A stretch of DNA of 64,000 bases from an uncultured Chloroflexia bacterium (GCA_963801445.1 CAWDEW010000013.1:117866-181865); one strand, 5' to 3'. Shown: positions 2,502-42,837, numbered from the stretch's first letter. The notes: generated from the letters alone by a model not told the origin. Numbers and translations: made by a program.

Positions 2502-2506
2502 GCGAG

Positions 2507-5393: not shown

Positions 5394-5403
5394 CGGGAGC
5401 CCC

Positions 5404-9265: not shown

Positions 9266-10204
9266 ATGGCACGATCCATGTGGCGCGGGGCGATCCAGTT
9301 CGGGCTCGTGACGATCCCGGTCCGGCTCTACCTCGCGACGGACTCCCACGGGATCTCGTTCAACATGCTCCACGAGAGCTGTCTGAACCGGATCCAGATG
9401 AAGACCTACTGCCCGTTCCACGACGAGGTCATCTCGCGCGGCGACACCATCAAGGGGTTCGAGTACGCGAAGGACCAGTACGTCGTCATCACCGACGAGG
9501 ACCTGGCGAACGTCCCGCTGAAGACGGTGCGCTCGATCGAGATCGAGAAGTTCGTGCCGGCCGCCGCCAGGCAGGACGAGCCCGTCCGCTTCGTGAAGCA
9601 GGCCTACTACGTCGAGCCGGAGGCGATCGGCCGCAAGGCGTACGCGCTCCTCCGCGAGGTCCTCGCCGAGCAGGGCCTGGCCGCGGTGTGCAAGGTCGTG
9701 ATCAAGGATCGCGAGGCACTGGCCTCGCTGAATCCGCAGGGCAACGCGCTGGTCCTCGAGACGCTCCATTGGCCGGACGAGATTCGGGCGACCCAGGAGC
9801 TGGACCTCCCGGCCGACGATATCGAGGTGAAGCCGGCGGAGCGGGCCATGGCGGCCCAGCTGATCGCGGCGATGACGGGCGAGTTCGACCCGGCCGAGTA
9901 CCGGGACGAGTACCGCCAGGCGCTCCAGCAGGTGATCGAGGCCAAGGTCGAGGGGCGCGAGGTCGCCGAGCCGGCCGAGCCCGCCGCGGGCGGCCAGCTG
10001 GTGGACCTGATGGCCGCCCTGGAGGCGTCCGTCAACGCGGCCCGGGCAGCCCGGGCCGCGGGCGCCGTCCCGGAGGCCGCGCCGGCACCGGTGAAGGTGG
10101 CTCGCGCCGGGCGTGCGTCCAGGGCGTCCGCCCCGTCCGACGCGGCGGACGCCGTCGACGAGGATGCCGCCCCGCGCAGGATGGCGCGCCGCAAGTCCGC
10201 CTGA
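9266..10204 (+). CDS. ku: NHEJ DNA end-binding protein Ku
   Basis: MARSMWRGAIQFGLVTIPVRLY is the canonical bacterial Ku N-terminus. Sits directly upstream of ligD. Confidence 0.9.
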   Translation: MARSMWRGAIQFGLVTIPVRLYLATDSHGISFNMLHESCLNRIQMKTYCPFHDEVISRGDTIKGFEYAKDQYVVITDEDLANVPLKTVRSIEIEKFVPAAARQDEPVRFVKQAYYVEPEAIGRKAYALLREVLAEQGLAAVCKVVIKDREALASLNPQGNALVLETLHWPDEIRATQELDLPADDIEVKPAERAMAAQLIAAMTGEFDPAEYRDEYRQALQQVIEAKVEGREVAEPAEPAAGGQLVDLMAALEASVNAARAARAAGAVPEAAPAPVKVARAGRASRASAPSDAADAVDEDAAPRRMARRKSA

Positions 10205-10988: not shown

Positions 10989-13877
10989 ATGCCGCTGGAC
11001 CGGTACCGCACACGGCGTGACTTCACGCGGACACCCGAGCCGGCGCCGGGGACCGTGGGGTCGTCCCCCGGACCGGGCGCCCCGGATCCGACCGCTCCAG
11101 GGGGCTGCGGTCGCTTCGTCGTGCACATGCACCGGGCCCGTCGCCTGCACTGGGACCTGCGCCTGGAGATCGACGGAGTCCTGGCCTCGTGGGCCATCCC
11201 GAAGGGCCCCACCCTGGACCCGGAGGAACGGCGCTTCGCGGCACGCACCGAGGACCACCCGATCGAGTACCTCGACTTCGAGGGCGTCATCCCGGCGGGC
11301 GAGTACGGGGCCGGCGACTCGATCTGCTGGGATTGGGGCACCTTCGAGCCGGAGCTCTCCTGGGATCCCGGGCAAGCGGTGCGCGACGGGGAGCTGAAGA
11401 TGCGCCTGCGCGGCGAGAAGCTGCGCGGGAGGTTCACCCTCGTGCGCACGGCCGGACGCGGCGGGGACGGAAGGGCGACGGGCGACGGGCGATCGCGCCG
11501 CTCACGGACGGACGCGGGCGGAGCGGAGGACGCGGGATCCGGCGAGGGCTGGCTGCTGATCGCCAAGCGCGACCCGGACTCGGTGGCCGGCTGGGACGCC
11601 GGCGACCACCCGGCGTCCGTGCGATCCGGCCTGACCAGCGCCGAGGTCGCCGCCGGCATGTCGCCGCGGTTCGTGCGCCCGGCCCCGGCGCCGCTGCCCT
11701 CGCTGGATGCCCCGGGCAGCCTGCGGGGCGTCCAGCCGACCACCCTGGCCCCGATGCTCGCGACGCCCGGCACGGCCCCGTTCGACGACGAGTCGTGGCT
11801 CTTCGAGCCCAAGTGGGACGGCTATCGCGCGCTCGCGATCGTGGCCGGGGGCAAGGTCCGCCTCGTGACCCGCAACGGCAACGATGCCGGTCGCTACTTC
11901 CCGGAGCTGCTCGGCCCGCCGGCCTGGCTGATGGCGCCCGACGCGATCGTGGATGGCGAGGTCGTGGCGTTCGACGAGGCGGGCCGCCCCGACTTCTCGC
12001 TCCTGCAGGCCCGGGTGGGCGGCGGATTCGGGCGCAGCGATCCGGGGCCCAGGCCGGAGGCCCGCGCGGCTGGCCAGGCGGCGCCGCTCCTGTTCATGGC
12101 CTTCGACCTGCCCTGGTGCGCCGGCCGATCGCTCGCGGGCGTGGCCCTCGAGGAGCGCAAGGCGATCCTGCGCCTGGTCCTGCGGGAGCATCCGCGCGTC
12201 CGCTACGGCGGGCACGTGGAGCGGGACGGCGTGGCGTTCTTCCGGGCGGCCGCCGAGCGCGGGCTGGAAGGCGCGATGGCGAAGCACCGGGCAAGCCGCT
12301 ACGAGCCGGGCCGCCGGTCTCCGGCCTGGCTCAAGCTGAAGGTCCGCCCCACCCAGGAGCTGGTCGTGGCGGGCCACGTCCCCGGGCAGGGCTCGCACCG
12401 CGACCTCGGGGCCCTCCTGGTGGGCCTGTTCGATGGTGGCACCCTGCGCTCCGTCGGCCGTGTCGGGAGCGGGATCGATGGGCCGATGCGAGCCCGGCTC
12501 CGGCGTGACCTGGATGCGCTCGCCCGCCCGACCATGTCGTTCGCGGCCCCAACCGCCGACCTGGCGGAGCTGGCCCGCACGCCGGAGGTCACCTGGGTCG
12601 ACCCGGTGCTGGTGATCCGCGCCGAGATCGGAGGCTGGACCCTGGACGGCAACATCCGCCAGGCCTCGTTCGTGGAGCTCGCCCGCGACGTGGACCCGGC
12701 CGCGGTCGAGCGCCAGGATGCCGTGGGTCCGGCAGCCGCCCAACGGGCCCTCGCGAAGTCCGGCCTCGGCTCGGGTCCCACCCGGGCCCCGGCAGTGCCC
12801 GGCCTGGCCTCGCGCCGAGGTGCGTCGCGCGAGTCGGTCGCGCCGGCCTCGGACCCGACTGCGCCGGCGGCGGTCGCGACGACGCTCCCACCTGCCCCGG
12901 TCGTGGCGGCGCCGGCCGTCGTCCTGACGGCCTCGGCCGCGGAGCTCGCGGCCCTCGAGGCGCTCCCGGCAGGCGGCGGGACCTGGAACCTTGCCGGGCG
13001 CGAGATTCGCCTCACGAACCTGGGCCGGGTCCTCGCGCCGGGCTCGGCGCCGGACGACCCACCGATCACGAAACGGGAGCTCATCCGATACCTGGTGGAG
13101 GCCGCGCCGCTCCTCCTCCCGCACCTTTCCGGCCGGGCCCTCAACCTGGCCCGCTACCCGGAGGGGATCGCCGGCGAATTGTTCTGGCAGAAGGACGTGC
13201 CGAAGGGGACGCCCGACTGGGTCGCCCGGTGGCGGGAGCCCGACCCGCCGGACCGCCGGGCGCACTCGTACGTGCTCGCGGACGAGGTCGCGGCGCTCGG
13301 CTGGCTCGGCAACCAGGCCGCCGTGGAGATCCACCCCTGGACGTCCCGGATCGAGGCGCCCGCCGAACCGCGCTGGGCCCTGATCGACATCGATCCGGGG
13401 ACGGCCACGACCTGGGACGAGGTGCTCGTGCTGGCCCGACTCTTCAGGCGCGCCCTGGAGCACCTGGGCGTCACCGGCGTCCCGAAGACGAGCGGCAAGC
13501 GGGGCCTCCAGGTCTTCATCCCGATCGGCCCCGGCTCGACGTTCGAGGCAACCCGGGGCTGGATCGAATTGCTCTCGCGGGCGGTCGGTGGAGCCGTCCC
13601 GGACCTCGTGAGCTGGGAGTGGGCGAAGGAGCGGCGGGGCGGCCGGGCGCGCCTCGACTTCACCCAGAACTGGCGGAACCGGACCCTGGTCGCCGCCTAC
13701 TCGCCGCGCCCGGCGCCCGGGCTGCCGGTCTCGGCGCCGATCACCTGGGCCGAGCTGGACGATCCGGAGCTGCGTCCCGACCGCTGGACGATCCGGACGA
13801 TCCTGGCCCGCGTCGGGGCCCGCGGCGACCTCTTTGCCGCCGCGCTCGGCCCGGACCAGGCCCTCCCGCCGCTCTGA
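10989..13877 (+). CDS. ligD: Multifunctional NHEJ DNA ligase LigD (phosphoesterase, ATP-dependent ligase, polymerase/primase domains)
   Basis: N-terminal phosphoesterase (RRDFTRTPEP, HMHRARRLHWDLRLE). Ligase motif I FEPKWDGYRA with motifs III, IV and V. C-terminal polymerase domain (LDFTQNW). Confidence 0.9.
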   Translation: MPLDRYRTRRDFTRTPEPAPGTVGSSPGPGAPDPTAPGGCGRFVVHMHRARRLHWDLRLEIDGVLASWAIPKGPTLDPEERRFAARTEDHPIEYLDFEGVIPAGEYGAGDSICWDWGTFEPELSWDPGQAVRDGELKMRLRGEKLRGRFTLVRTAGRGGDGRATGDGRSRRSRTDAGGAEDAGSGEGWLLIAKRDPDSVAGWDAGDHPASVRSGLTSAEVAAGMSPRFVRPAPAPLPSLDAPGSLRGVQPTTLAPMLATPGTAPFDDESWLFEPKWDGYRALAIVAGGKVRLVTRNGNDAGRYFPELLGPPAWLMAPDAIVDGEVVAFDEAGRPDFSLLQARVGGGFGRSDPGPRPEARAAGQAAPLLFMAFDLPWCAGRSLAGVALEERKAILRLVLREHPRVRYGGHVERDGVAFFRAAAERGLEGAMAKHRASRYEPGRRSPAWLKLKVRPTQELVVAGHVPGQGSHRDLGALLVGLFDGGTLRSVGRVGSGIDGPMRARLRRDLDALARPTMSFAAPTADLAELARTPEVTWVDPVLVIRAEIGGWTLDGNIRQASFVELARDVDPAAVERQDAVGPAAAQRALAKSGLGSGPTRAPAVPGLASRRGASRESVAPASDPTAPAAVATTLPPAPVVAAPAVVLTASAAELAALEALPAGGGTWNLAGREIRLTNLGRVLAPGSAPDDPPITKRELIRYLVEAAPLLLPHLSGRALNLARYPEGIAGELFWQKDVPKGTPDWVARWREPDPPDRRAHSYVLADEVAALGWLGNQAAVEIHPWTSRIEAPAEPRWALIDIDPGTATTWDEVLVLARLFRRALEHLGVTGVPKTSGKRGLQVFIPIGPGSTFEATRGWIELLSRAVGGAVPDLVSWEWAKERRGGRARLDFTQNWRNRTLVAAYSPRPAPGLPVSAPITWAELDDPELRPDRWTIRTILARVGARGDLFAAALGPDQALPPL

Positions 13878-13958: not shown

Positions 13959-16517
13959 ATGCCGCCAGCGCCGCTCACCCGCCGCTCCGCCTCTTCGGCG
14001 CTGGCGGCCGGCCCTCGCGCAGCGCGGCCGCTCGCGCGGCGCAGGCTCGCCAGCGGGCTCGTGGCGCTCGCCCTGCTCCTTCCGGGCACGCCCGGAGCGC
14101 TCGCGGCCGCGTCCCCTGCCCTGGCCGCGGCGGGATCGGCCCCCGGGATCGGCGCGACGGCCGGAGCGGCAGGCACGCTCACGTTGCCCCTCGGGCGCGG
14201 CACCGCCAGGCGAGTCACGACCCGGACGCCGGCGGTGCCGGGCGCGATCCGCCCGACGTCCCGGCCCTACCTCACGGTCGGCCCCGCCAGGGGCGCGGGC
14301 ACGGTGGCCGGGACTCCCCGAGCCGGCACCCCGGCCGGCCCGGTTCCGGCCGGCGGACCGGGCAGCCCGGTGGCGCCGCTGGCGGCGTTGCCCGGTCCCG
14401 GATCGCAGGCGGGCGCGACCTTCCTGGGCCTGACGGACCAGGCGAACGCCGCCTACCTGCCCGATTGCGGCACCACGCGGCCGTGCATCGAGCCGCCGGA
14501 CCCCTGGGTCGCCGTGAGCGCCACGTACGTGGTCCAGTCCGTGAACGGCGTGACCAGGGTCACCACGCGATCCGGCGGCCTCCCGAATCCGGGGGCTCCG
14601 ACGGCCGGCGTGAACAGCAACGCCGCCTGGTTCGGGCTCCCCGCGGACATGCTGGACGCCGATCCCCACGTGCTCTACGACGCGGCCCACGATCGCTGGA
14701 TCGCCACGTTGTTCGGCTACAGCTGCACGGCCGGGCGCCTCTACGTCGCGGTCTCCGCGGACGGAGCGCCGTACCCCCTCACGTCCGGGCCGGGTGGTCA
14801 CTGGAGCACGATCGAGCTGAACTTCGACGGGTCCGTGACCGGGCTTCCGGCCGGCATGCCGGACTTCCCGCTCGTCGGGTTGACGAGCTCCGTCGTCGGG
14901 ATCGGGATCAACGTCTTTGCGCGCGACCCGGCCGCCGTCGACCTCTGCGACGCGGTCTACCCACCCGTCTACGGTGGCGCGCAGCTTCTGGCGTTCGACC
15001 TGTCTGCGTTGGAGGGGACGGGGCCGATCCCCTACGCCTACACCGCACCATCGACGACCGTCTTCTCGTTCGCGCCCGCCCACGACGTCGGGGCCGGGAA
15101 CCGCCTCCACGTGGTGGCCGCCGGAGGCGGTGACTTCGCCAACCCGGCCACGATCCCGGCGGCGCCGACCGTCCTCTACGGGGCGCTCGACGGGCCGATC
15201 GGCGGGACCACCGGGGCGACGTCGATCACGATGACGACGCTGGACGGCGTCACCCTGGCCCAGCCACCCCCGCCGATCGACCCGGGCGGCAGCCTGGACT
15301 TCGCCGCGGACTTCCGGATCACGGACGCGACCTGGACAGCGGACCGCCTTGCGTTCCCGACGACCGGCATCTCGGGACCCGGCGGGCGACCGCGAGCCCG
15401 CGTGGTCGAGCTCGCAACCAACGCGGAGGGCGGTCCTGCCGGAGCCACGCTGGCCCAGGTCTTCACGCTCCAGCCGAGCGCCGGCTTCGGATACACGGAT
15501 ACGTTCGTGGCCGGTGTCGGATACGCCGCCGACGGCACCCTGTGGACCGCCTACAGCCAGTCGGGCCCGTCGGCCGCGATCTCGAGCTGGTCCCGCCGCC
15601 AGCGCCTCGTGGATCGCCCGGCGACCCTGCCCGCCGTGGACGCGCCCTTCTCGGCCGGTGCCGCCCTGCTCGCGACCGGTCGGGGCGGATACGGCGGGAT
15701 GAACAGTCGGTGGGGCGACTACGTCGGGGTCGCTCCCGATCCGGCCCCGGGGATGGAGGGGACCGTCTGGCAGGCCAACGAGTTCGCCGACCTGGCCGAG
15801 GGCTGGGCCACGCTTGCCTCGCAGCTCGGCGACGACACGGCGTCCCCGTCGATCCCGGGGCCGTTCTCGGTGGCCCTGGGAAATGGACGGGGGCTTCCGT
15901 CGCGGACCTCGATCCCGGTCACCGTCTCGTGGGGAGCGGCGACCGATGCCGGCAGCGGAATCGGCGCGTACCGCCTCCTCAGGCGCGTGAACGGCGGGGC
16001 GTGGGCAGCCGTCCCGCTGGGCTCCCCGACCGCGCGGTCGGTCACGGTCACGATGGCCTTCGGGGCCAGCTACCAGTTCCAGGTCAGCGCGACGGACAAC
16101 GCGGGCAACCCGGCAGGGCCGGCCCGGACGAGCCCGGCCTACCGGCCGACCTTCTACCGGCCCATCGCGAGCGCGTCCGTCGCCCTCGTCGGCTGGTGGG
16201 GGTGGGCAAGGTGCTCTCCCTGCGTCGGCGGCCGGCTCCGGTCCTCCTCGGTGCGGAACTCCCGGGTCACGCTCACCACCACGGCCTGGGCGATCGGCTG
16301 GGTGACGGTCCGCGGGCCAGCCCGTGGCTCCGCCCGGGTCTACCGCGACGGCGTGCTGCAAGGCGCCTACAGCCTGTACGCTCGCCTGAACCTGACCCGC
16401 TTCCTCGTCACCAGCCGGACGTTCCCGACGCTGGCCCGCCACAGCATGCGGGTCGTCGTCGTGGGCACGGCCGGTCACCCGCGGATCGACGTGGACGTGT
16501 TCATCGTCATCCGCTGA
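13959..16517 (+). CDS. Large secreted hypothetical protein with signal peptide and a C-terminal fibronectin-III-like module
   Basis: N-terminal hydrophobic signal (LVALALLLPGTPGALAAA). C-terminal VTVSWGAATDAGSGIGAYRLLRRVNGGAW...YQFQVSATDNAGN is FN3-like. Confidence 0.55.
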   Translation: MPPAPLTRRSASSALAAGPRAARPLARRRLASGLVALALLLPGTPGALAAASPALAAAGSAPGIGATAGAAGTLTLPLGRGTARRVTTRTPAVPGAIRPTSRPYLTVGPARGAGTVAGTPRAGTPAGPVPAGGPGSPVAPLAALPGPGSQAGATFLGLTDQANAAYLPDCGTTRPCIEPPDPWVAVSATYVVQSVNGVTRVTTRSGGLPNPGAPTAGVNSNAAWFGLPADMLDADPHVLYDAAHDRWIATLFGYSCTAGRLYVAVSADGAPYPLTSGPGGHWSTIELNFDGSVTGLPAGMPDFPLVGLTSSVVGIGINVFARDPAAVDLCDAVYPPVYGGAQLLAFDLSALEGTGPIPYAYTAPSTTVFSFAPAHDVGAGNRLHVVAAGGGDFANPATIPAAPTVLYGALDGPIGGTTGATSITMTTLDGVTLAQPPPPIDPGGSLDFAADFRITDATWTADRLAFPTTGISGPGGRPRARVVELATNAEGGPAGATLAQVFTLQPSAGFGYTDTFVAGVGYAADGTLWTAYSQSGPSAAISSWSRRQRLVDRPATLPAVDAPFSAGAALLATGRGGYGGMNSRWGDYVGVAPDPAPGMEGTVWQANEFADLAEGWATLASQLGDDTASPSIPGPFSVALGNGRGLPSRTSIPVTVSWGAATDAGSGIGAYRLLRRVNGGAWAAVPLGSPTARSVTVTMAFGASYQFQVSATDNAGNPAGPARTSPAYRPTFYRPIASASVALVGWWGWARCSPCVGGRLRSSSVRNSRVTLTTTAWAIGWVTVRGPARGSARVYRDGVLQGAYSLYARLNLTRFLVTSRTFPTLARHSMRVVVVGTAGHPRIDVDVFIVIR

Positions 16518-16718
16518 CCCGGTCCGGGCCGGCGCCGGCTGCCGCCGGTTCGCGAGGGGCACCGGGCGAGCGCTCCCGAAGTGCCGCGAATGGCGCCGCT
16601 CGGTGCCCGGTTCGACCCGCCCCTGCCGGCCGGCCCGCACGGGTGGCCCGGGGGGGCCCGCCCGGGGATGCCCGACGGCACTTGCTGCCTGGTGGGGTGC
16701 CCGGCGGAGACTGGGCAC

Positions 16719-17201
16719 ATGAACGAGACTGCCGCACTCATCGCAGCGTTGAACACGTCGTGGTTTGCGTCCGGTCTGAGCGAGAAGTCGCAGGCGCGCC
16801 TCGCGGAGCTCGGGCGGCGCTTCACCGCCGAGCCCGGGACGGAGCTCTTCAGGGAGGGTGAGCCCAGCGAGACCTTCGGCATCCTGGTCCACGGCCGCGT
16901 CGCGCTGCGGACCCTCGTCCCTGAGCGCGGCGACATCACGATCCTCACGGTCGAGCCGGGCGACGTCTACAGCTGGTCGGCGCTCGTCCCGCCGTACAAG
17001 GCCTCGTCCACCGGGACCGCGATCGAGCCAATCGAATCGATCGTCTTCGACGGCAACGCCCTGCGGGCGGCCCTCCGCGAGGATTGCGACCTGGCCAGGT
17101 CGCTCTACCCCCGCATCCTCGTCGCGGTCTCGCGGCGCCTCAACGCGACCCGGGTCCAGCTCCTTGACCTGTTCGCGGCCGAGCAGGTACGCGCGTGGTG
17201 A
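16719..17201 (+). CDS. Standalone cyclic-nucleotide-binding (CAP effector) domain protein
   Basis: A cNMP-binding beta-barrel (FREGEPSETFGILVHGRVAL...EPGDVYSWSAL) with no HTH or output domain. Its 3' end overlaps the start of the hydrogenase beta-gamma gene. Confidence 0.7.
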   Translation: MNETAALIAALNTSWFASGLSEKSQARLAELGRRFTAEPGTELFREGEPSETFGILVHGRVALRTLVPERGDITILTVEPGDVYSWSALVPPYKASSTGTAIEPIESIVFDGNALRAALREDCDLARSLYPRILVAVSRRLNATRVQLLDLFAAEQVRAW

Positions 17202-19186
17202 CGATGCGCTCCCAGGGGCGGGGCCAGCGTCCCGCCCTGGAAGGCCCCGGATACCTCGACCGTGCCGATCTCCAGGCTCTCTTCGACCTCCTTCGCGAGG
17301 ATGGCCGGCGACTCGTCGGCCCCACCATGGCCGATGGTTCGATCGTCTACGACGAGATCGCCTCGGTGGACGACCTTCCGCGCGGCTTCGGGGACGAGCA
17401 GGCGCCCGGCCGCTACCGGGTGCGCCGTCGCGGCGATGAGCGCCTCTTCGGCTTCGTGGTCGGCCCGACCGCGTGGAAGCGCTGGACATTTCCGCCGCTG
17501 GTGCAGCTGACCCATGCCACCCGCGACGGCCACCGCGTCTCCTTCGAGCCTGACGCGGCGGGGGTCCCGCTGCTCGCGTTCCTCGGCGTCCGCGCCTGCG
17601 ATCTCGCGGCGATCGGCGTCCAGGACCAGGTCTTCACCGGGGCGACCTTCGTCGACCCGGACTACCAGGCGCGCCGGGCGCGGGTCCTGGTGGTGGCCAC
17701 CCAGTGCATGACCGCCGCGTCGACCTGCTTCTGCACTTCGATGGGCACGGGCCCCGAGGTGACCTCCGGCTACGACATCCTGCTCACCGAGCTCGACAGC
17801 GGGTTCCTGGTCGAGGCGGATTCCGCCCCCGGCCGCGCGCTGCTCGAGCGGCTCCCGATCCGGCCGGCAACGGCCGTCGAACAGTACGGGGCGGCCGCCG
17901 CGGTCGCGGCGGTGCGCGCGAGGATCGGCGACCCGGTCCCGGCGGCAGGTCTCCACGACCGCCTCATGGCCCAGCTTGACCACCCGCGCTGGGCGCAGGT
18001 GGCCGAGCGCTGCATCACCTGCGGCAACTGCACGCTCGCCTGCCCGACCTGCTTCTGCACGACCCTCGGCCAGGCGACGGACCTCACCGGGGAGCGCGCG
18101 ACGACGACGCGAATCTGGGACAGCTGCTTCAGCCCCGGCTTCGCGAAGGTCGCCGGCGGCAGCTTCCGGGCCCGCCCGCGCGATCGCTACCGGCAATGGC
18201 TCACCCACAAGTTCGGCACCTGGTGGGACCAGTTCGGGCAATCCGGGTGCGTGGGCTGCGGCCGCTGCATCACCTGGTGCCCCGTCGGGATCGACGTTCG
18301 CGAGGAGCTCAACGCGATCGCCCCGTCCGTCCCGCTGTCCCCGGAGACGCCGCTGGTCCAACCGGTGGCCGCGACCCCGAACGACTTCGTGACCGCCCGC
18401 GTCGTGGCTACCAAGGCCGAGACGGTGGACACGACGACGCTGACCCTGACCGGCGTGGATCCCGCGTTCAGCAAGGGAAGCACCGGCCAGTTCGCGATGG
18501 TCTCCCTGCCCGGGTTCCCACCGCTCCCGATCTCGATCAGCCGGTTCCTCCCCGACGGCATCGAGCTGACCATCCGCGGTGCCGGACCCGCGACGCGCGC
18601 GATGTGCGCGCTCCAGGTCGGCGATCAGCTGGGCCTGCGCGGCCCGCTGGGCAACAACTGGCCGCTCGATCGGGCCGTCGGCCGCGACCTCGTGATCGTG
18701 ACCGGCGGGATCGGCCTCGCCCCGCTGCGCCCCGTCCTCCAGGCGATCGTGGCCGACCGTCGCCGGTTCGGCGACGTGATGCTGTTCTACGGCGCGCGGA
18801 CGCCCGGCGATCTGCTCTACCGGGACGAGCTGGAACGCTGGGCCAGCCGCCATGGAATTGAGGTGAGCCTGACGGTCGACCGCGCGGGGCCGGAATGGAC
18901 GGGCCGGGTCGGCATCGTGACCCACCTCTTCGACCAGGCCGCCTGGGACGGGACCAACATGATCGCGTTCGTGTGCGGCCCCGAGCGGATGATGCAGGCG
19001 ACGGCGACCACGCTGGCCGGCCGGGGCGTCCCGGCAACCCGGATCCACGTGACCCTGGAGCGCCACATGGAGTGCGGGATCGGGCTCTGCGGCCACTGCC
19101 AGATGGGCAAGTACTTCGTCTGTCGGGACGGGCCGGTCTTCTCGATCGCCCAGCTCGGCGACACCTTCGGCCGGGAGGGGATCTGA
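17195..19186 (+). CDS. Group 3b [NiFe] hydrogenase beta-gamma fusion: N-terminal 4Fe-4S subunit and C-terminal FAD/NAD(P)-binding subunit with a 2Fe-2S site
   Basis: The N-terminal half has CITCGNCTLACPTCFC and CVGCGRCITWCP (HydB/AsrA-like). The C-terminal half has a ferredoxin-NADP reductase fold (LVIVTGGIGLAPL) ending CGIGLCGHCQ (HydG/AsrB-like). Confidence 0.85.
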   Translation: MVTMRSQGRGQRPALEGPGYLDRADLQALFDLLREDGRRLVGPTMADGSIVYDEIASVDDLPRGFGDEQAPGRYRVRRRGDERLFGFVVGPTAWKRWTFPPLVQLTHATRDGHRVSFEPDAAGVPLLAFLGVRACDLAAIGVQDQVFTGATFVDPDYQARRARVLVVATQCMTAASTCFCTSMGTGPEVTSGYDILLTELDSGFLVEADSAPGRALLERLPIRPATAVEQYGAAAAVAAVRARIGDPVPAAGLHDRLMAQLDHPRWAQVAERCITCGNCTLACPTCFCTTLGQATDLTGERATTTRIWDSCFSPGFAKVAGGSFRARPRDRYRQWLTHKFGTWWDQFGQSGCVGCGRCITWCPVGIDVREELNAIAPSVPLSPETPLVQPVAATPNDFVTARVVATKAETVDTTTLTLTGVDPAFSKGSTGQFAMVSLPGFPPLPISISRFLPDGIELTIRGAGPATRAMCALQVGDQLGLRGPLGNNWPLDRAVGRDLVIVTGGIGLAPLRPVLQAIVADRRRFGDVMLFYGARTPGDLLYRDELERWASRHGIEVSLTVDRAGPEWTGRVGIVTHLFDQAAWDGTNMIAFVCGPERMMQATATTLAGRGVPATRIHVTLERHMECGIGLCGHCQMGKYFVCRDGPVFSIAQLGDTFGREGI

Positions 19187-20034
19187 TGCCGCACACTCCC
19201 GTCGCCGCCCGCCCGCGCGTCGGCGTCGTCAAGTTCGCCTCGTGTGACGGCTGCCAGCTCACCCTGCTCGACCTCGAGGACGAGCTGCTCTCGATCGTCG
19301 AGCACTTCGAGATCGTGGACTTCCCGGAGGCGACCTCGGCCCGCTCCGCGGGCCCGTACGACGTCCTCTTCGTCGAAGGGTCCATCAGCGAGCCGGCCCA
19401 TCTCGAACGGATCGCCGAGCTTCGCCGGCGCACCCGCTTCCTCGTGACGATCGGCGCCTGCGCGACCGCCGGCGGCATCCAGGCGCTCCGCAACTGGGGC
19501 GACCACGATGCGTTCCGGAGCAGCGTGTACGCCCAGCCCGAGCAGATCGAGTCGCTGGCCCGCTCGACGCCGATCGCGGAGCACGTCGCGGTTGACGCGG
19601 AGCTGCGCGGCTGCCCGATCGACCCGGGCCAGCTCGTCGAGCTGCTCACCGCCCTCACCACCGGCCGCCGCCCGCAGCTCCGCGACGAGGCCGTGTGCAT
19701 GGAGTGCAAGCGGCGCGGCGTCGTGTGCGTGATGGTCGGCAAGGGGATCCCCTGCCTCGGCCAGGTGACCCAGACGGGCTGTGGCGCGATCTGCCCGCGC
19801 TATGGTCGCGGCTGCTACGGGTGCTTCGGCCCCCGCGAGCAGGCCAACGCCGCGGGCCTGGCCCGGCACCTCCAGATGGCCGGCGACCGGCCACGTGACG
19901 AGGTCGGGCGGCTCTTCGCCGGGTTCACGGCCTACGCGGAGCCGTTCCGGAGCATGGTCACCGAGCTCGGCGGCGCCCGGTCCGGGCGGCCCGAGACCGC
20001 GGCCGAGCCGGGCCCGCAGGGAGGCAAGGCATGA
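19186..20034 (+). CDS. Group 3b [NiFe] hydrogenase small (delta) subunit
   Basis: VVKFASCDGCQL...FVEGS...GACATAGG small-subunit motifs and a distal cluster (CMECKRRGVVCV...CLGQVTQTGCGAICP). TGATG overlap with the upstream gene. Confidence 0.85.
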   Translation: MPHTPVAARPRVGVVKFASCDGCQLTLLDLEDELLSIVEHFEIVDFPEATSARSAGPYDVLFVEGSISEPAHLERIAELRRRTRFLVTIGACATAGGIQALRNWGDHDAFRSSVYAQPEQIESLARSTPIAEHVAVDAELRGCPIDPGQLVELLTALTTGRRPQLRDEAVCMECKRRGVVCVMVGKGIPCLGQVTQTGCGAICPRYGRGCYGCFGPREQANAAGLARHLQMAGDRPRDEVGRLFAGFTAYAEPFRSMVTELGGARSGRPETAAEPGPQGGKA

Positions 20035-21353
20035 GCCACGGGACCGCGCACCACGAGGCGGACGAGCGGCTCTACGAGGTCGGAGAGCTGACCCGGGTGG
20101 AGGGCGAAGGATCGCTCCGCCTGCGGGTCCGCGACGGCGAGGTCATCGAGGCCCGCCTCGGGATCTTCGAGACCCCGCGCTACTTCGAGGCCCTCGTCGT
20201 CGGACGCACACCCGACGAGGCGATCGACATCGTCGCCCGCATCTGCGGGATCTGTCCGGTCGCCTACCAGATGAGCGCGGTCCACGGGTTCGAGGACCTC
20301 TTCGGCGTCCGGATCGACCCGTCGGTGCGCGCGCTCCGGCGACTCTTCTATTGCGGCGAGTGGATCGAGAGCCACGCCCTGCACATCTACTTCCTGCACG
20401 CGCCGGACTTCCTGGGCTATGAGAGCGCGATCGCGATGGCGGCCGACCACCGGCCCGCCGTCGAGGCGGCCCTGCGGATGAAGAAGGTCGGCAACCAGGT
20501 CGTCCGCGTCCTGGGCGGACGCCCGATCCACCCGGTCTCCGTGCGGGTCGGCGGCTGGTCCCACGTCCCGCGCCGGGCGGAGCTCGAGGCGCTGGTCCCG
20601 GACCTCGAGGCCGGCCTGGCGATCGCCCGCGAGACGATGAGCTTCGTGACCGGCCTGACGATGCCCGTCTTCGAGCGCGAGCCGCGCCTGGTCAGCCTCC
20701 GCCACGCCGCCGAGTATCCCTTCAACGACGGGCGGATCGTGAGCAGCGACGGCCTGGACCTGGCGCCCGGCGCGTGGCGCGATGCCTTCGAGGAGTTCCA
20801 GGTGGAGGGAAGCCACGCGCTCCATGCCCGCTCCCGGGACGGGAAGGGCGTCTATCTCGTGGGCCCCGCGGCCCGCGTGACGATGGCCGCGGAGCAGCTC
20901 CACCCGCTGGCCCGGGAGGCCCTGGCGGCGTCCGGCTACGCGCAGGCGATCCGCACGAACATCTACGCCTCGATCGTGGCCCGGGCGGTCGAGCTGGTCC
21001 ATGCCTTCGCCGAGGCGCTGGACCTGGTCGCCGCCTACCGGCCGCCCTCCGAGCCGCTCGTCGCCTGGAAGAGCCGCCCGGGCGTGGCCGCGTGGGCGAC
21101 GGAGGCGCCCCGCGGGCTGCTGTTCCACCGCTACGAGGTGGACGAGGCCGGTCGGATCAAGGCCGCCCAGATCGTGCCCCCGACCAGCCAGAACCAGGCC
21201 GCCATCGAACGTGACCTCGCGGTCGCGGCGAAGGGCGTCCTGGACCTGCCCCACGCCCAGGCGACCCACCGCCTGGAGCAGATGATCCGGAGCTACGACC
21301 CGTGCATCAGCTGCGCGACCCACTTCCTCGATCTCCGGGTCGAGCAAGCCTGA
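20031..21353 (+). CDS. Group 3b [NiFe] hydrogenase large (alpha) subunit
   Basis: RICGICPVAY N-terminal and DPCISCATH C-terminal Ni-Fe motifs. ATGA overlap with the small subunit. Confidence 0.9.
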   Translation: MSHGTAHHEADERLYEVGELTRVEGEGSLRLRVRDGEVIEARLGIFETPRYFEALVVGRTPDEAIDIVARICGICPVAYQMSAVHGFEDLFGVRIDPSVRALRRLFYCGEWIESHALHIYFLHAPDFLGYESAIAMAADHRPAVEAALRMKKVGNQVVRVLGGRPIHPVSVRVGGWSHVPRRAELEALVPDLEAGLAIARETMSFVTGLTMPVFEREPRLVSLRHAAEYPFNDGRIVSSDGLDLAPGAWRDAFEEFQVEGSHALHARSRDGKGVYLVGPAARVTMAAEQLHPLAREALAASGYAQAIRTNIYASIVARAVELVHAFAEALDLVAAYRPPSEPLVAWKSRPGVAAWATEAPRGLLFHRYEVDEAGRIKAAQIVPPTSQNQAAIERDLAVAAKGVLDLPHAQATHRLEQMIRSYDPCISCATHFLDLRVEQA

Positions 21354-21382
21354 CCGCGGCCACCGGGCCCGGGCCGTCGATC

Positions 21383-21868
21383 GTGGCGCGCGTCCCGGTC
21401 TTCGTGTGCGGCGAGCCGGCCCGCGGCGACGACGCCGCCGCGCTCGCCGCGATCGCCCTGTTGCCCGCGTCCGTCCGCGAGCTCGCGGACATCGTGGAAG
21501 CCGGCCAGCTGGACCTGCTCCTCCTGATGGACCTGCCCGCCGGAGCGCCCTGCGTCGTGGTTGATGCCGTGGCCGGCATCAGGCCGGGCGAGATCTGGGT
21601 GCGCCCGCTGGCCCGGCTCGCGGACCTGCCCCGGATGCGGGCCCAGGGCGGCCCGGCGCCTGAGCCGCGATCCTCGCACGAGCTGCCCCTCGACCACGTC
21701 CTGGCCCTGGCGGCGACGCTGCGCGATGGACCACCCGAGGGAACGTTCATCGGGATCGGCGGTGCCTGCTTCGACGTCGGCACGTCCCTCACGCCGGCCG
21801 TTCAGGCGGCCCTGCCGACCCTCGGCGCGACCATCGCCGCCGAGGTGGAGCGGCTCGCCGGCCGCTGA
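21383..21868 (+). CDS. Hydrogenase maturation endopeptidase (second copy, for the group 3b enzyme)
   Basis: VFVCGEPARGDDAAA matches the HycI/HybD-like N-terminus. GTG start just after the large-subunit stop. Confidence 0.65.
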   Translation: MARVPVFVCGEPARGDDAAALAAIALLPASVRELADIVEAGQLDLLLLMDLPAGAPCVVVDAVAGIRPGEIWVRPLARLADLPRMRAQGGPAPEPRSSHELPLDHVLALAATLRDGPPEGTFIGIGGACFDVGTSLTPAVQAALPTLGATIAAEVERLAGR

Positions 21869-21954
21869 GATGGCCGCCGCCCGGCCGCTGCGGGCGGCGA
21901 GTCGGCCGGACCGCGACGAGACGGAGCTCCCACGGGTGGGCGTCCCGCCCGCGG

Positions 21955-23169
21955 TCAGGGGTAGATCTGGCCGATCGTGGCCTTGTCGACCCAGGCCGGC
22001 TCGACGAGGAGGAGCTTGGGGACGCTCTTCCCGGCGATCAGGTCGAGGAGGGCCGGCACCGCGCTGGCCCCGTACTTCTCGGGGAAGTAGGCGCTGTCGC
22101 CGAGGTAGTGGGCGTTCGTCCGGATCAGGTCGCGGACGCGGGAGTCGGCCCCCTGACCGCTGACGTAGACGTCGTTCGACCGGCCGGCCTGGCTGGCCCC
22201 GTCCAGGGCTCCGAGCGCGCCGTCGTCGTTCATGGCGACGACGAGGATCCTCGACTTCCCGGCCAGGTTCGGGAGGAGCTCGAGGAGCGCATCGCGCGCC
22301 GTGTCGGTCCGGTCCGCGCTCGTGCCGATCTGCTCGTTCGTGAGCCCCGCTGCGACCGTCGGAGCCGGGGATCCGCTCGCTCCGGGTGCCGACGCGGACG
22401 CTGACGCGGACGCTGAGGCAGGTGGTGCGCTGGACGGCGCGGCTGGCGACCCTGACGCTGCCGGCGACGAGGCCGACGAGGCCGACGGGGCCGGCGATGC
22501 GGCCACGCCCGGACAGACGGTCAGGAAGCCCTGCCGGTAGCCCTCCATGCGCATCTGGCTGCGCTCCGGGGCCGACGCCGATTCGAACGAGACGTAGGCG
22601 TCGTACTGGCAGCTCCAGCTCGCCTTCACCCAGGCGCCGACGGCAGCCCCGGCGATCTGGCCGGCTCGCAGGTCGTCGGCCCGGACGAGCGTCGCCGCGC
22701 ACGGATCCTGGGCGAACTCGATGGCGACGACCGGGACGTTTGCCGCGACCTGACCGCACACGATCGCCGGATCCTTGAGCAGGCCCTGGAACTGGATGAT
22801 CCCCTTGACGCCGGCGTCCGAGAGCTGCTTCATGCAGGCGTCGACCTTGCCCTGGTCCAGCGCCGCGTCGCAGACGACGAGGTCCGCGCCGGCCTTTTGG
22901 GCCTCGGAACGGATCCCGGCGGTGATCGACGCGACGTACGGGACCTGCTCGCCGTAGCTGACGTAGCCGATCTTGATGCCGTTGCCGCTCCCGGCGGCTG
23001 CGCCGGTGTACGGGTTCGCGGACGGCGAAGGCGTCGGGGCGAGGGTGGGCGTCGGAGACGCGGCCGCTCCCCCGGACCCGGGGACGCAGGCCGTCGCGGC
23101 GATCGCGACGATGCCAAGGACGGCGAGCAGGCGGCCGGCGCGGAATGGCGCCGAGCGGCGGACGGGCAC
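21955..23169 (-). CDS. Sugar ABC transporter substrate-binding lipoprotein (periplasmic-binding-protein type I family) with an internal Ala/Ser/Pro low-complexity insertion
   Basis: Signal plus lipobox (IVAIAATAC) and a ribose/galactose-binding-like core (KIGYVSYGEQVPYVASITAGI...ILVVAMNDDGALGA). No cognate permease or ATPase is adjacent. Confidence 0.65.
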   Translation of the reverse strand: MPVRRSAPFRAGRLLAVLGIVAIAATACVPGSGGAAASPTPTLAPTPSPSANPYTGAAAGSGNGIKIGYVSYGEQVPYVASITAGIRSEAQKAGADLVVCDAALDQGKVDACMKQLSDAGVKGIIQFQGLLKDPAIVCGQVAANVPVVAIEFAQDPCAATLVRADDLRAGQIAGAAVGAWVKASWSCQYDAYVSFESASAPERSQMRMEGYRQGFLTVCPGVAASPAPSASSASSPAASGSPAAPSSAPPASASASASASAPGASGSPAPTVAAGLTNEQIGTSADRTDTARDALLELLPNLAGKSRILVVAMNDDGALGALDGASQAGRSNDVYVSGQGADSRVRDLIRTNAHYLGDSAYFPEKYGASAVPALLDLIAGKSVPKLLLVEPAWVDKATIGQIYP

Positions 23170-24886: not shown

Positions 24887-26296
24887 TCAGAGCACCTTGC
24901 CCGGGTTGAGGATCCCCAGCGGGTCCAGCGCGGCCTTCACCGCCCGCATCACCCGGACGGCGTCGGCCCCCCGGGTCATCTCGAGGTAGGCCTTCTTGGC
25001 CACGCCGATCCCGTGCTCACCGGTCACGGAGCCGCCCAGAGCCAGGGTGGCCCGGTACAGGTCGTCCTGGGCGGCGCGCAGCCGGGGCGCGCCGGTCGGG
25101 TCGTCGCGGTCGAACACGAAGCTCGGGTGGAGGTTGCCATCCCCGGCGTGGCCGAAGACGCCGATCCGGAGCCCGCGCCGGTCGCCGATCTCGTGGATGG
25201 CGTGCAGGAGCTCCGGCACCCGGCTGCGGGGGACGACGACATCCTCCATCCGGCTGACGCCCATGGCATCGAGCGCCCAGTGGGCCATCCGGCGGCCCTG
25301 GCGAAGAAGATCGGCCTCGGTGGGGTCGTGGGCCCGGACCAGCGTGCCGGCGTCCGCGGACGCACAGGCGCGTTCCGCGCGGTCCAGCTCATCGTTGGCG
25401 GCCGACCCGGGAAGGTCCGACTCGACGAGCAGCATCGCGGCCGCGTCCTCGTCGAGGCCCAGGTGGTAGGCGGCGTTCACCGCCCTGATCGTGAACTGGT
25501 CCATCAGCTCCAGGGTGCAGGGCTGCACCCCGTCCCGGACCATCCCCGCGACGGCGCGTCCGGAATCCTCGATCGTCCCGAAGAAGGCGAGCAGGGTCTG
25601 CTTCGGGGCCGGCATCGGGATCAGGCGGAGCGTCGCCTCGGTCACCACGCCCAGCGTTCCCATGCTCCCCACGAAGAGGCTGGTGAGGTCGTAGCCGGCG
25701 ACGTCCTTGACGTTCCGGCCGCCCGTCCGGATGACCGCACCATCGGCCAGCACGACCTCCAGGCCCAGGACCGCGTCCCGGGTGACCCCGTACTTGACGC
25801 AGCAGAGACCCCCGGAGTTCGTGGAGACGTTGCCCCCGATCGTGCACGTCTCGTAGCTCGCCGGGTCGGGGGCGTAGAAGAGGCCGTGCTCGGCGACCGC
25901 CTTCTTGAGCTCGGCGTTCACGACGCCGGGCTGGACGACGACCGCGCGGTTCTCCTCGTCGATCTCCAGGATCCGGTTCATCCGCATGAGGCTGACGGTG
26001 ACCCCCCCGGAGACCGCGATCGCCCCGCCGGAGAGGCTCGTTCCGGCGCCGCGCGGCACCAGCGGCACCCGATGGGCCGCGGCGAGCCGGACCAGGGCGG
26101 CCACCTCCGCGGTCGACGCGGGGAACGCGACGGCCAGCGGGGCGGGTGGCTCGAGATAGGCGGTCTCGTCGCGGCGGTGCGACTCGAGGTCGGCAGCGTC
26201 CCTGGTCAGCCGCAGGTCGGGCAGCGCGACGCGCAGGGCCGCGAGGAACGCCCGCTGGGCCGGATCGGGCTGGAGGGTCGAAGCATCGTCCGTCAT
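24887..26296 (-). CDS. FAD-linked oxidase (GlcD/D-lactate dehydrogenase family)
   Basis: FAD-binding PCMH domain (PLVPRGAGTSLSGGA) and a C-terminal FAD-oxidase domain (GGSVTGEHGIGVAKKAYL). Confidence 0.8.
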   Translation of the reverse strand: MTDDASTLQPDPAQRAFLAALRVALPDLRLTRDAADLESHRRDETAYLEPPAPLAVAFPASTAEVAALVRLAAAHRVPLVPRGAGTSLSGGAIAVSGGVTVSLMRMNRILEIDEENRAVVVQPGVVNAELKKAVAEHGLFYAPDPASYETCTIGGNVSTNSGGLCCVKYGVTRDAVLGLEVVLADGAVIRTGGRNVKDVAGYDLTSLFVGSMGTLGVVTEATLRLIPMPAPKQTLLAFFGTIEDSGRAVAGMVRDGVQPCTLELMDQFTIRAVNAAYHLGLDEDAAAMLLVESDLPGSAANDELDRAERACASADAGTLVRAHDPTEADLLRQGRRMAHWALDAMGVSRMEDVVVPRSRVPELLHAIHEIGDRRGLRIGVFGHAGDGNLHPSFVFDRDDPTGAPRLRAAQDDLYRATLALGGSVTGEHGIGVAKKAYLEMTRGADAVRVMRAVKAALDPLGILNPGKVL

Positions 26297-26328
26297 GACC
26301 GAAGGATACGGACGGCGCGAGCCTCCGG

Positions 26329-27198
26329 CTATCCAATTCGCCGATCTGCCTCCAGGGCCCAGGGCATCGTCCGCCAGGCGGGGGGCAGGACCGCCGACCA
26401 GGCCCGCCAGCTCGCGCCGAGCCAGGCGGCGACAACCCTTCGGCCCGGCGTCCAGTGGATCCCGTAGCCCTCACGGACGCGCGCCGGGAGGAGGCCCAGG
26501 GCGGGCCACAGCAGGAAGCCGAGCCACCCGCGGGGGACGGCCGCGAGCAGCGGGCCGAGGGCGCCCGGGAGGATCGCCCCGGGTCCGTCGCCGGCGAGGG
26601 GCCCGAGCGGCGGCGCCAGGATGGCCGCCGCAAGGTCCCGTGCCGTGGGAGTCACCTGGATCGGCCCTCCCGGGCCCAGCATCCCATCCCACCATCGGCG
26701 GAATGCGGAGAGGTCGGGCGGGAGGACCGACTCGCTGATCCCGAAGGCTTGGGCGATGGGCAGGGTCTCGGCGTAGAACCGGGCCGCCTCGACCGCGTCC
26801 AGCGGCCCCAGCCAGGCCTCGTTGAGGGCGAGCGTGCTCTCGACGAGCGTCGCATGCACCCACAGCGAGAGCGCGGAGTCGCGGGCGTCGTACGTCGTCG
26901 CACCGGTGACGGATCGCGCGAGCGGGTCGACCACCGGTCCCGTGACCGGTCGGTGAAGCCGGTTCAGGCGCGCGATCTCGGCGAGGGCGGCCGCCCGGGA
27001 TCCGTAGACGATCCGGAGATAGCTCCCCAGGGTGCCGACCAGCCGGGACCAGGGGTCGAACCGGAACGATGAGTGCGCCGCGACACCCTCCGCGATCAGC
27101 GGGTGGGCGAGCTGGAGGAGGAGCGCACGTGGGCCGGCGCCCAGGAGGAGGAACGCCTCGCGATTGAGCGACCAGGCGGCGGAGCCGGGTCCGTACAG
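26329..27198 (-). CDS. DUF2236/MpaB-family oxygenase-like protein; no canonical start codon precedes the conserved N-terminal region
   Basis: Upstream of the tabulated GTG start (26934) the same frame stays open and encodes GPGSAAWSLNREAFLLLGAGPRALLLQLAHPLIAEGV, the family hallmark. There is no ATG/GTG/TTG in that stretch. Confidence 0.55.
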   Translation of the reverse strand: MYGPGSAAWSLNREAFLLLGAGPRALLLQLAHPLIAEGVAAHSSFRFDPWSRLVGTLGSYLRIVYGSRAAALAEIARLNRLHRPVTGPVVDPLARSVTGATTYDARDSALSLWVHATLVESTLALNEAWLGPLDAVEAARFYAETLPIAQAFGISESVLPPDLSAFRRWWDGMLGPGGPIQVTPTARDLAAAILAPPLGPLAGDGPGAILPGALGPLLAAVPRGWLGFLLWPALGLLPARVREGYGIHWTPGRRVVAAWLGASWRAWSAVLPPAWRTMPWALEADRRIG

Positions 27199-27208
27199 GC
27201 CGGCGTCG

Positions 27209-27922
27209 TCAGCGTTCGCCGTGTCCGCGCCCCACGATCCACCAGGCCGTCGGGAAGATGATCCCGGCGGCGGCGAGCTTGATCAGGTCCCAGGCGAGGA
27301 ACGGGTAGGCGCCCTTCTCCAGCGCGGTGGCCGGGTCGAAGCCGGCGGCGACGGCCAGCCAGGGGACGCCGACGAGGTAGATCACGAGGTTGCCGACCAG
27401 CATGGCCGCCACGGCTCCACCGACGTGACGGTCCCAGCCCAGCTCGGCGAGGCGGCCGACGATGGCGCTCGCAAGGAGGAACCCGATGAGGTACCCGCCG
27501 GTCGCCCCGAGGACGAGGTGGCCCCCGTCACGGGCGACGAACGTGTGGATGCCCGAGGCCCCGCCGGCGTAGACGGGCAGGAAGAGCCCCATCAGCAGGT
27601 AGAGCCCCACCGAGAGCCCGCCCCGGCGGAAGCCCAGGGCCCCACCCACCAGCAGGACCGAGAAGGTCTGGAGCGTGATCGGGACGGGCGAGATCGGGAG
27701 CGTGACCCGGACGTCGCCCAGGAAGGAGATCGACCGCCCGTCGAGCGGGAGGGCGACGTTGGCGCTGAGGGCGATCAGCACGGCCCCGAGGACGACGAGG
27801 GCGAGGTGCCGGGCCCGCTCGCTGATGCGCTCCCCGATGGCGATCGGGACGAGGAAGTCGCCGATCGTGATCCCGCGCTCCGACGCGGGGAGCCGGTTCA
27901 GGCGCGGCGAGGCCAGCGACAT
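27209..27922 (-). CDS. bioY: Biotin transporter BioY (ECF S-component)
   Basis: SPVPITLQTFSVLLVGGALGFRRGGLSV matches the BioY signature, with multiple transmembrane segments. Confidence 0.75.
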   Translation of the reverse strand: MSLASPRLNRLPASERGITIGDFLVPIAIGERISERARHLALVVLGAVLIALSANVALPLDGRSISFLGDVRVTLPISPVPITLQTFSVLLVGGALGFRRGGLSVGLYLLMGLFLPVYAGGASGIHTFVARDGGHLVLGATGGYLIGFLLASAIVGRLAELGWDRHVGGAVAAMLVGNLVIYLVGVPWLAVAAGFDPATALEKGAYPFLAWDLIKLAAAGIIFPTAWWIVGRGHGER

Positions 27923-28058
27923 GCGTCCCTCCAGGGGCGGCCTGCAGGCCACCGAGAGCCCGAGTCTACCAGAGGTCCCGGGCCGCTCCGTCCGCACCTC
28001 GCCTCCGGAATCCGGGGCGGCTCCGCAGACCGGTTCGGGCGGCTCCCAGCCGCCGGCC

Positions 28059-42136: not shown

Positions 42137-42164
42137 TCAACGAACACGCTCCAGGGAGGCCCAG

Positions 42165-42794: not shown

Positions 42795-42837
42795 GAGCGC
42801 CCGGCGGAGGAGGGCGGCTCGGAAGCGACTGCCGCCG

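Follow-up and report, generated by a model that had tools for sequence, protein, structure and literature searches.

A group 3b nickel-iron hydrogenase operon of a Chloroflexota bacterium with a fused beta-gamma subunit and a candidate fifth subunit of the cyclic-nucleotide-binding fold

Organisation of the operon

The stretch of DNA analysed here, which we call the window, comprises 64,000 nucleotides (nt) from an uncultured Chloroflexia bacterium (GCA_963801445.1 CAWDEW010000013.1:117866-181865). On its plus strand, positions 16719-21868 hold an intact operon predicted to encode a soluble, NAD(P)-linked nickel-iron ([NiFe]) hydrogenase of group 3b, in which the beta and gamma subunits are joined in one polypeptide and the enzyme genes are preceded by a gene for a small protein of the cyclic-nucleotide-binding (CNB) fold. 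Because the G+C content of the window is ~73%, six-frame lists of open reading frames (ORFs) are crowded with spurious frames; a third-position GC content (GC3) of 0.88-0.95 picks out five consecutive plus-strand genes across this interval (Table 1).

The first four genes are linked by stop/start overlaps of 1-4 nt. Three start codons are available to the beta-gamma frame, GTG 17195 (663 amino acids, aa), GTG 17198 (662 aa) and ATG 17204 (660 aa), the second of which is the start in an identical database protein (P0121) and overlaps the stop codon of the CNB gene (TGA, 17199-17201) by 4 nt (GTGA), the alternatives being a 7-nt overlap or a 2-nt gap. Further along, the delta ATG at 19186 shares 1 nt with the beta-gamma stop (TGATG) and the alpha start at 20031 overlaps the delta stop by 4 nt (ATGA), while the likeliest start of the protease is GTG 21383 rather than the point where its ORF opens, at 21302. 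A perfect hairpin behind the protease stop may mark the end of the operon, and the next gene downstream lies convergently on the minus strand (21955-23169). A scan of 16400-22100 for consensus (sigma-70) promoters and terminators found none, and no riboswitch or other RNA element matched Rfam at E <= 1 in 16300-22200.

A preliminary description of this locus had assigned the enzyme to group 3b and given the order of the genes behind beta-gamma as delta, alpha and a dedicated protease, and both hold, the Pfam and NCBIfam domains being as expected and the sulfhydrogenase I/II models and structures scoring best. The overlap that it reported between the CNB stop and the beta-gamma start is present, at 4 nt from GTG 17198. 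Its lengths need slight correction: the 663 aa given for beta-gamma apply from GTG 17195, whereas the start of the identical database protein gives 662, and the CNB protein, rightly said to be bare of any output domain, has 160 rather than 161 residues.

Table 1. Genes and features of the hydrogenase operon and of the second hydrogenase operon in the window
Feature	Position	Strand	Remarks
CNB protein gene	16719..17201	+	160 aa; PF00027 sole Pfam match; GC3 0.92
Fused beta-gamma (diaphorase) subunit	17198..19186	+	662 aa from GTG 17198; Fer4_22, NAD_binding_1, DHODB_Fe-S_bind
Delta subunit ([NiFe] small subunit)	19186..20034	+	282 aa; Pfam Oxidored_q6; best NCBIfam model ShyD, 8e-51
Alpha subunit ([NiFe] large subunit)	20031..21353	+	440 aa; Pfam NiFeSe_Hases
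Hydrogenase maturation endopeptidase (HycI/HoxW type)	21383..21868	+	161 aa from GTG; Pfam HycI; TIGR00072 3.7e-17, above cutoff
Perfect 9-bp GC hairpin	21875..21899	not assigned	inverted repeat I5; between protease stop and convergent gene; no T-tract
NuoE-like 2Fe-2S protein	2010-2501	+	
NuoF-like flavin mononucleotide/NADH subunit	2411-4153	+	
[NiFe] large subunit (Hox type)	5404-6825	+	followed by HypA

Identity of the hydrogenase

The assignment to group 3b is that of the best-scoring NCBIfam models and Protein Data Bank (PDB) chains. All four catalytic modules score highest with the subunit models of Pyrococcus sulfhydrogenases I/II: for alpha, these are ShyA (1.6e-75) and HydA (8.4e-70) against VhuA (1e-40) and FrhA (2.6e-39), and the PDB chains 9nez_D, 9e15_B and 5yxy_A (2e-66 to 6e-64) against 1e-42 for group 3c (Mvh). 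Among solved structures, the beta-gamma protein is matched best by chains B and C of 9nez (beta and gamma of sulfhydrogenase 1); within it, the NCBIfam models ShyB/HydB cover residues 128-375 and ShyC/HydG residues 400-654, with Pfam domains Fer4_22 at 272-366, NAD_binding_1 at 502-604 and DHODB_Fe-S_bind at 622-654. The partner modules of group 3b are all present, namely an Oxidored_q6 small subunit, an AsrA-like iron-sulfur (FeS) beta part and an AsrB-like gamma part with flavin adenine dinucleotide (FAD)/NAD(P) and 2Fe-2S domains.

The beta part (residues ~1-371) keeps two intact CxxCxxCxxxC motifs and the gamma part (~396-662) has an FAD/NAD(P) domain and an intact C-terminal four-cysteine cluster, with a proline-rich linker between them (~372-395, nt ~18311-18382). 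In alpha, the motifs C72-x2-C75 and C425-x2-C428-x2-H431 are intact and are followed by a nine-residue C-terminal tail for protease cleavage; the gene for a dedicated HycI-family protease lies directly downstream. The predicted activity is the one expected of group 3b, a reversible H2:NAD(P)+ oxidoreductase.

Archaeal group 3b enzymes are built of four subunits. Those of Pyrococcus furiosus (sulfhydrogenases I/II) and Thermococcus kodakarensis (cytosolic hydrogenase), represented by 9nez, 9e15 and 5yxy, are the best-scoring homologues and have the same cofactor motifs; however, their four subunits are separate proteins, and the chains listed in the solved complex are gamma, beta and alpha, with no CNB subunit. 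The beta and gamma halves are also homologous, at ~30% identity, to AsrA and AsrB of anaerobic sulfite reductase, whose genes are likewise adjacent, but which are partnered with the sirohaem subunit AsrC instead of a [NiFe] dimer and under whose matches no CNB gene is listed.

The beta-gamma fusion

Beta and gamma share one uninterrupted ORF in 73 of the 76 testable loci of Limnocylindria-type Chloroflexota, the other three looking like frameshifted or truncated contigs. These loci belong to a set of 80 that were fetched with the CNB protein as bait, all of them from Chloroflexota metagenome-assembled genomes (MAGs) labelled Limnocylindrales or 'Chloroflexia'; the scan of genome contigs returned this phylum only, because its peptide patterns were very specific, and other phyla were reached through plasmid records and cluster representatives. 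A protein search yielded 7,984 relatives, of which the best 120 listed are all fused, mostly with 656-692 aa, except two entries truncated at the N- or C-terminus; these homologues stem from NCBI, JGI, ENA and Logan assemblies. Among 1.84 billion representatives at 50% identity, most relatives are split beta subunits of ~370 aa, and ~18 of the best 150 are fused. One of these fused representatives is a RefSeq protein of an isolate, the gammaproteobacterium Pseudomaricurvus alkylphenolicus (WP_167000795.1).

Could the fusion nevertheless be an artefact of sequencing or assembly, through a lost stop codon or a frameshift, as the preliminary description had allowed? Frameshifts do occur in long-read MAGs of high G+C content, and we met them in two further loci (L039, L059) besides the two cases described below. 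Yet the fused frame runs uninterrupted through independent loci and through hundreds of database clusters from several sources, the isolate protein has it too, and GC3 is uniform, at 0.92, along the entire ORF in the window. The chance of an artefact is close to nil, and the fusion is genuine.

Two apparent larger fusions were rejected. In P0264, a seeming beta-CNB-gamma triple fusion, the middle is an out-of-frame stretch rich in arginine, proline and histidine, which makes it a frameshift artefact. A locus with CNB and beta-gamma in a single ORF (L053) is probably the product of an indel, as its CNB match ends at residue 123. In the literature searched, no description of a beta-gamma fusion in group 3b was found. 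The layout of the window, with CNB first and a fused beta-gamma behind it, is common to hundreds of database entries and one isolate.

Distribution of the CNB gene

In 79 of the 80 Chloroflexota loci the CNB gene precedes the hydrogenase, and identity to the window across these relatives averages 68% for the CNB protein against 70% for beta (r = 0.93). In one subclade (L040-L043 and L045) the gene for the maturation protease stands upstream of the CNB gene, not after alpha.

Outside this phylum, tblastn against annotated plasmids detects CNB homologues of 30-39% identity within the group 3b operons of Rhodococcus, Paraburkholderia, Burkholderia and Pandoraea, where the gene sits between those for beta and gamma with overlapping codons. 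A profile built from the members outside Chloroflexota collects upwards of 5,500 clusters whose proteins measure 152-155 aa, the named sources including Burkholderiales, Acidobacteriota, Bacteroidota, Armatimonadota and Steroidobacteraceae. Where the context was checked, in Blastocatellia, Bacteroidota and Armatimonadota, CNB directly follows beta with a 14-nt overlap (three of three); in Armatimonadota the next gene called is gamma, and in Blastocatellia genes for delta and alpha come after it. The CNB family commonly supplies the fifth gene of group 3b operons in bacteria, across at least six phyla: besides Chloroflexota, these are Actinomycetota, Pseudomonadota, Acidobacteriota, Bacteroidota and Armatimonadota, and the usual place of the gene is between those for beta and gamma. 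Its members have also been noticed in print: in Frankia, a homologue between hyhG and hyhB is labelled 'small transcriptional regulator' (PMC11879354), the gene is noted in Rhodococcus equi (PMC13332983), and in a methanotroph the homologue is named HoxI (PMC12319191).

Two arrangements invite comparison with the window. Operons of the order beta - CNB - gamma - delta - alpha - protease (Rhodococcus, Frankia Francci3_4500-4495, Paraburkholderia, Burkholderia, Pandoraea, Blastocatellia, Bacteroidota and Armatimonadota) match the window in enzyme and in CNB family, with overlapping codons, 29-34% identity to the CNB protein of the window and the common motifs G-[DE]-x3-W-S-x-L-x-PP-Y and R-L-x-ATRxQLLD; they differ in that beta and gamma are separate with CNB between them, whereas in the window CNB leads and a beta-gamma fusion follows. 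The operon of Pseudomaricurvus alkylphenolicus has the identical architecture, with a 161-aa CNB protein whose gene overlaps by 8 nt that of a 670-aa beta-gamma protein, then delta, alpha and a HycI protease. This bacterium is, however, a gammaproteobacterium, its beta-gamma and CNB proteins are 44% and 29% identical to those of the window, and hypA, hypF, hypC and hypD directly follow, whereas the operon of the window ends after the protease.

Synteny in relatives, which the preliminary description had put forward as a check, is thus found in nearly all the Chloroflexota loci. Its view that the pairing of a CNB gene with a hydrogenase is unusual does not stand, given the spread of the same family through group 3b operons of so many phyla, its appearance in the literature and the parallel with HoxI discussed below.

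Fold and ligand pocket of the CNB protein

The AlphaFold2 model of the CNB protein (22-sequence alignment, pLDDT 91) consists of a cyclic-nucleotide-binding beta-barrel and then a 37-residue helix (123-159), and Foldseek matches it with a probability of 1.0 to CRP, GlxR, PKG and PKA domains. Its nearest structures by Foldseek and HMMER are 3mdp and the effector domains of mycobacterial CRP, GlxR and Pat. The chain ends where the C-helix does, at residue 160, and has neither a C-terminal helix-turn-helix (HTH) nor a match to HTH_Crp_2; of 465 homologues found, the best 120 are almost all of ~160 aa, and lengths in the family are uniform at ~152-160 aa. It is a CRP/FNR-type sensor domain with its dimer helix and without the DNA-binding half, alike to CRP/FNR effector domains in fold and long C-helix, but different from them in having neither the HTH output domain nor the glutamate and arginine of the cassette that holds cyclic AMP or GMP (cAMP/cGMP).

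Aligned to GlxR by HMMER, the cassette glutamate falls on Trp86 and the arginine on Ala95; MAFFT alignments that include HoxI concur on the Gly-Glu/Trp86 position, and the alignment of the loop is uncertain by 1-2 residues. Position 86 is tryptophan in 100% of 116 Limnocylindria-type sequences and 80% of 118 from other phyla, and position 95 is alanine in 70% of the former set and tryptophan in 99% of the latter. Because both cassette residues are replaced, canonical binding of cAMP or cGMP appears unlikely. The best solved match by sequence and fold, 3mdp (Gmet_1532, a 142-aa standalone CNB protein of Geobacter), has a P-Y-x-x-T-S stretch in common with the CNB protein and is likewise without the cassette glutamate and arginine.

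What the family does conserve lies elsewhere: the motif G81-[DE]-x3-W-S-x-L-x-P91-P92-Y is common to both sequence sets, and the most conserved motif, R140-L-x-A-T-R-x-Q-L-L-D150, is on the C-helix, which in CRP-type proteins is the dimer or interface helix. Neither an FNR-type cysteine cluster nor CooA-type haem ligands were found in the protein, whose sole cysteine (C123) is kept in 51% of the clade and which has no conserved histidine; FNR-like FeS sensing and CooA-like haem sensing were rejected on these grounds.

Natural fusions of sensor domains to the beta subunit

In two clusters, each full-length in 2-3 independent assemblies, a complete beta subunit carries a CNB-family domain at its C-terminus. 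The gene for one such protein, of 542 aa, is immediately followed by a free-standing 153-aa CNB-family gene, the two together lying at L087:2924-5110 and L088:1739-3925, and this pair of fused and free copies fits a CNB module that works as a dimer. Genomic context is out of view for P0253, whose contig measures 1.2 kb, and for P0247, whose contig begins 225 nt 5' of the fused gene. Other group 3b operons (L089:5001-6566 and L095:713-3428) encode a response-regulator receiver domain joined N-terminally to beta (521 aa) or to beta-gamma (773 aa); in L095 a free receiver gene lies upstream, and a histidine kinase and a full-length CRP are encoded a few genes downstream. Two unrelated signalling folds have thus been placed on the same subunit, CNB at its C-terminus and the receiver at its N-terminus, which argues for a sensor input on the enzyme and not on DNA, and suggests that in group 3b a sensor module is attached to the enzyme itself.

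A candidate fifth subunit

We read the locus as a complete cytosolic group 3b operon of a high-GC, Limnocylindria-type member of the Chloroflexota, whose CNB protein would be a HoxI-like fifth subunit of the enzyme; judged from sequence and by analogy, we give this reading somewhat better than an even chance. By homology to the solved Pyrococcus enzyme, the alpha-delta dimer would make or split H2, with electrons passed along the delta and beta FeS clusters until they reach the FAD/NAD(P) site in gamma; the ~25-residue proline-rich linker fixes beta and gamma at a 1:1 stoichiometry, and the protease would trim the C-terminus of alpha once nickel and iron are inserted. The CNB protein, most likely the fifth subunit in this scheme, would be made in step with beta-gamma through translational coupling, would form a dimer and dock on the beta/gamma diaphorase arm, and may there tune or (re)activate the enzyme upon binding a small ligand. 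Since its pocket is without the residues that hold cAMP or cGMP, this ligand is probably not a cyclic nucleotide. A pyridine nucleotide is our leading guess, made solely by analogy with HoxI.

HoxI of Cupriavidus necator (Ralstonia eutropha) H16, a 167-aa protein of the cyclic-nucleotide-binding fold encoded in the hox operon (pHG1 PHG093), is likewise a small CNB-only protein whose gene shares an operon with those of a soluble, NAD(P)-linked [NiFe]-hydrogenase, in its case of group 3d. According to PMC3702609 and PMC3189943, which cite Burgdorf et al. 2005, a HoxI homodimer attaches to the diaphorase module, comes off when salt is high and pH alkaline, and supplies the site at which NADPH activates the oxidised enzyme. 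The differences are considerable: HoxI keeps the cassette Gly-Glu and is without the PP-Y and ATRxQLLD motifs of the group 3b family, its gene is the last of its operon whereas the CNB gene of the window is the first, and its partner diaphorase, HoxFU of the complex-I type, is unrelated to the AsrA/AsrB-type beta/gamma module.

A wider proposal, which we advance tentatively and regard as possible rather than probable, is that bacterial group 3b enzymes are under direct control and carry an exchangeable sensor on the beta subunit, usually a dimeric pseudo-CNB protein with a tryptophan-lined pocket and, in certain lineages, a receiver fed by a histidine kinase, that would gate the flow of electrons between NAD(P)H and Ni-Fe in response to a metabolite or to phosphorylation; the protein of the window would be its free-standing form, its ligand being something other than cAMP or cGMP.

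Several observations weigh against a HoxI-like fifth subunit. The resemblance to HoxI is weak, at 24% identity over 84 residues by BLASTP (E 2e-4) and a probability of 70% by hhalign, and CRP-type regulators match the CNB protein as well as HoxI does or better; the likeness therefore amounts to a functional analogy within one superfamily, not to orthology that has been shown, and may reflect convergence. Nor is the gene constant: an adjacent, separate pair of beta and gamma genes with nothing in between, and no CNB gene, is found in Streptomyces sp. NBC_01340, a MAG that contributed one of our hydrogenase loci (L026) also holds an orphan CNB paralogue of 62% identity (L038:8001-8480), and Streptomyces has CNB homologues in a stress-protein island away from the hydrogenase. 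The AlphaFold2 model of a natural beta-CNB fusion (P0262) has confident domains, a disordered linker (376-385) and a pTM of 0.71, and gives no evidence of a fixed interface; it is uninformative on this point, since that pTM is about what one well-placed large domain would reach alone. We know of no purified group 3b enzyme with a CNB subunit, and the literature searched contained none. For Hyd3 of M. smegmatis, the annotation gives just beta, gamma, delta, alpha and protease, with no CNB gene (PMC2799521).

The surroundings of such outlying copies are varied. Around the orphan paralogue lie unrelated genes for a polysaccharide deacetylase, a CMAS methyltransferase, an M20 peptidase and a DinB-like protein. 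A homologue on a plasmid of Streptomyces sp. SAT1 (L083:5980-6432) stands amid universal stress proteins, a CBS protein, a GAF sensor kinase and a response regulator, and on two other Streptomyces plasmids the homologue lies ~12 kb from group 3b genes.

Alternative roles

Might the CNB protein be a genuine receptor of cAMP or cGMP, and so an allosteric switch by which a second messenger acts on the hydrogenase? The fold is a bona fide cyclic-nucleotide-binding one, above the Pfam cutoff, its nearest solved full-length relatives are the cAMP-binding CRP, GlxR and Pat, and the cassette region retains an invariant serine (Ser97) and, beside the lost arginine position, a basic residue (K/R94) that could still bind phosphate, which also tells against our view of the ligand. 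Even so, the glutamate for the ribose 2'-OH is an invariant tryptophan in this clade, the arginine position is taken by alanine here and almost always by tryptophan in the set from other phyla, and the closest solved relative, 3mdp, has lost both residues as well, so that we consider a cyclic-nucleotide receptor unlikely. The preliminary description had proposed an allosteric partner responsive to cAMP or cGMP; the allosteric part of that idea remains the best reading, while the response to these nucleotides is doubtful with the cassette residues replaced family-wide.

Its other suggestion was a sensor that hands off to another regulator. Such a sensor acting on transcription, which would control expression of the operon and not the enzyme, is less probable still. 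It would suit a CRP/FNR effector domain with a dimer helix, the orphan copies away from hydrogenase genes, and the name given to the homologue in Frankia (PMC11879354). But there is no HTH domain, none of the 80 loci points to a conserved DNA-binding neighbour gene, a place within a structural operon with codons overlapping between two subunit genes is atypical of a regulator, and the covalent fusions of CNB to beta found in nature argue for action on the enzyme; nothing supports the hand-off. Perhaps, instead, the protein helps to assemble or mature the FeS/flavin (beta-gamma) module and forms no part of the completed enzyme. Dedicated maturation genes are common in hydrogenase operons, the protease being one here, the CNB gene is dispensable in some operons, and HoxI, according to PMC3702609, dissociates readily from the core enzyme. 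Stable CNB-beta fusions, however, imply a permanent 1:1 presence, and the receiver domains fused to the N-terminus of the same subunit are signalling modules, not chaperones; we rate a maturation helper as improbable, to about the same degree as a cAMP/cGMP receptor.

Significance

The operon of the window is one more instance of a common, already noted type, real and largely ordinary. Its residual interest lies in the CNB family itself, a conserved, uncharacterised candidate sensor subunit of bacterial group 3b enzymes that probably does not bind cyclic nucleotides, with counterparts in the receiver domains. Group 3b hydrogenases occur widely among bacteria of soil and water, in which they are thought to vent excess reductant as H2 in hypoxia, and, to our knowledge, nearly all their biochemistry comes from the four-subunit archaeal enzymes. 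Most of the bacterial versions sampled carry a fifth conserved protein of the CNB family, or a receiver fused to beta. If the CNB module is regulatory, control would be post-translational, which would affect models of H2 production by aerobes as well as the engineering of these enzymes for cofactor regeneration. The fused beta-gamma protein, which a culturable gammaproteobacterium also has, is a simpler construct with which to undertake expression and structural studies.

Other features of the window

A second soluble hydrogenase operon, of Hox type and probably of group 3d, occupies 2010-6825 and 7357-7731 on the plus strand (Table 1); no cyclic-nucleotide-binding domain was found among its scanned proteins, a scan that covered the operon outside 4153-5404. 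Between the two hydrogenase operons, also on the plus strand, lie genes for Ku (9212-10204) and for a full-length, three-domain LigD with phosphoesterase, ligase and primase-polymerase (10989-13877), which together make up a pair for non-homologous end joining. At 13959-16517 on the plus strand, an ORF of 852 aa has coding-type GC3 but no match in Pfam or NCBIfam; it has relatives of 41-50% identity in several related MAGs, directly upstream of the CNB gene in two loci (L019, L021) and ~6 kb upstream of it in four (L003, L006, L011, L017). Three stretches, 26001-30000, 42001-44000 and 50001-52000, stand out against the rest of the window by a strong positive AT skew (0.16-0.27 in 2-kb bins), the first of them covering minus-strand genes for BioY and an ABC permease of the MacB/FtsX type.

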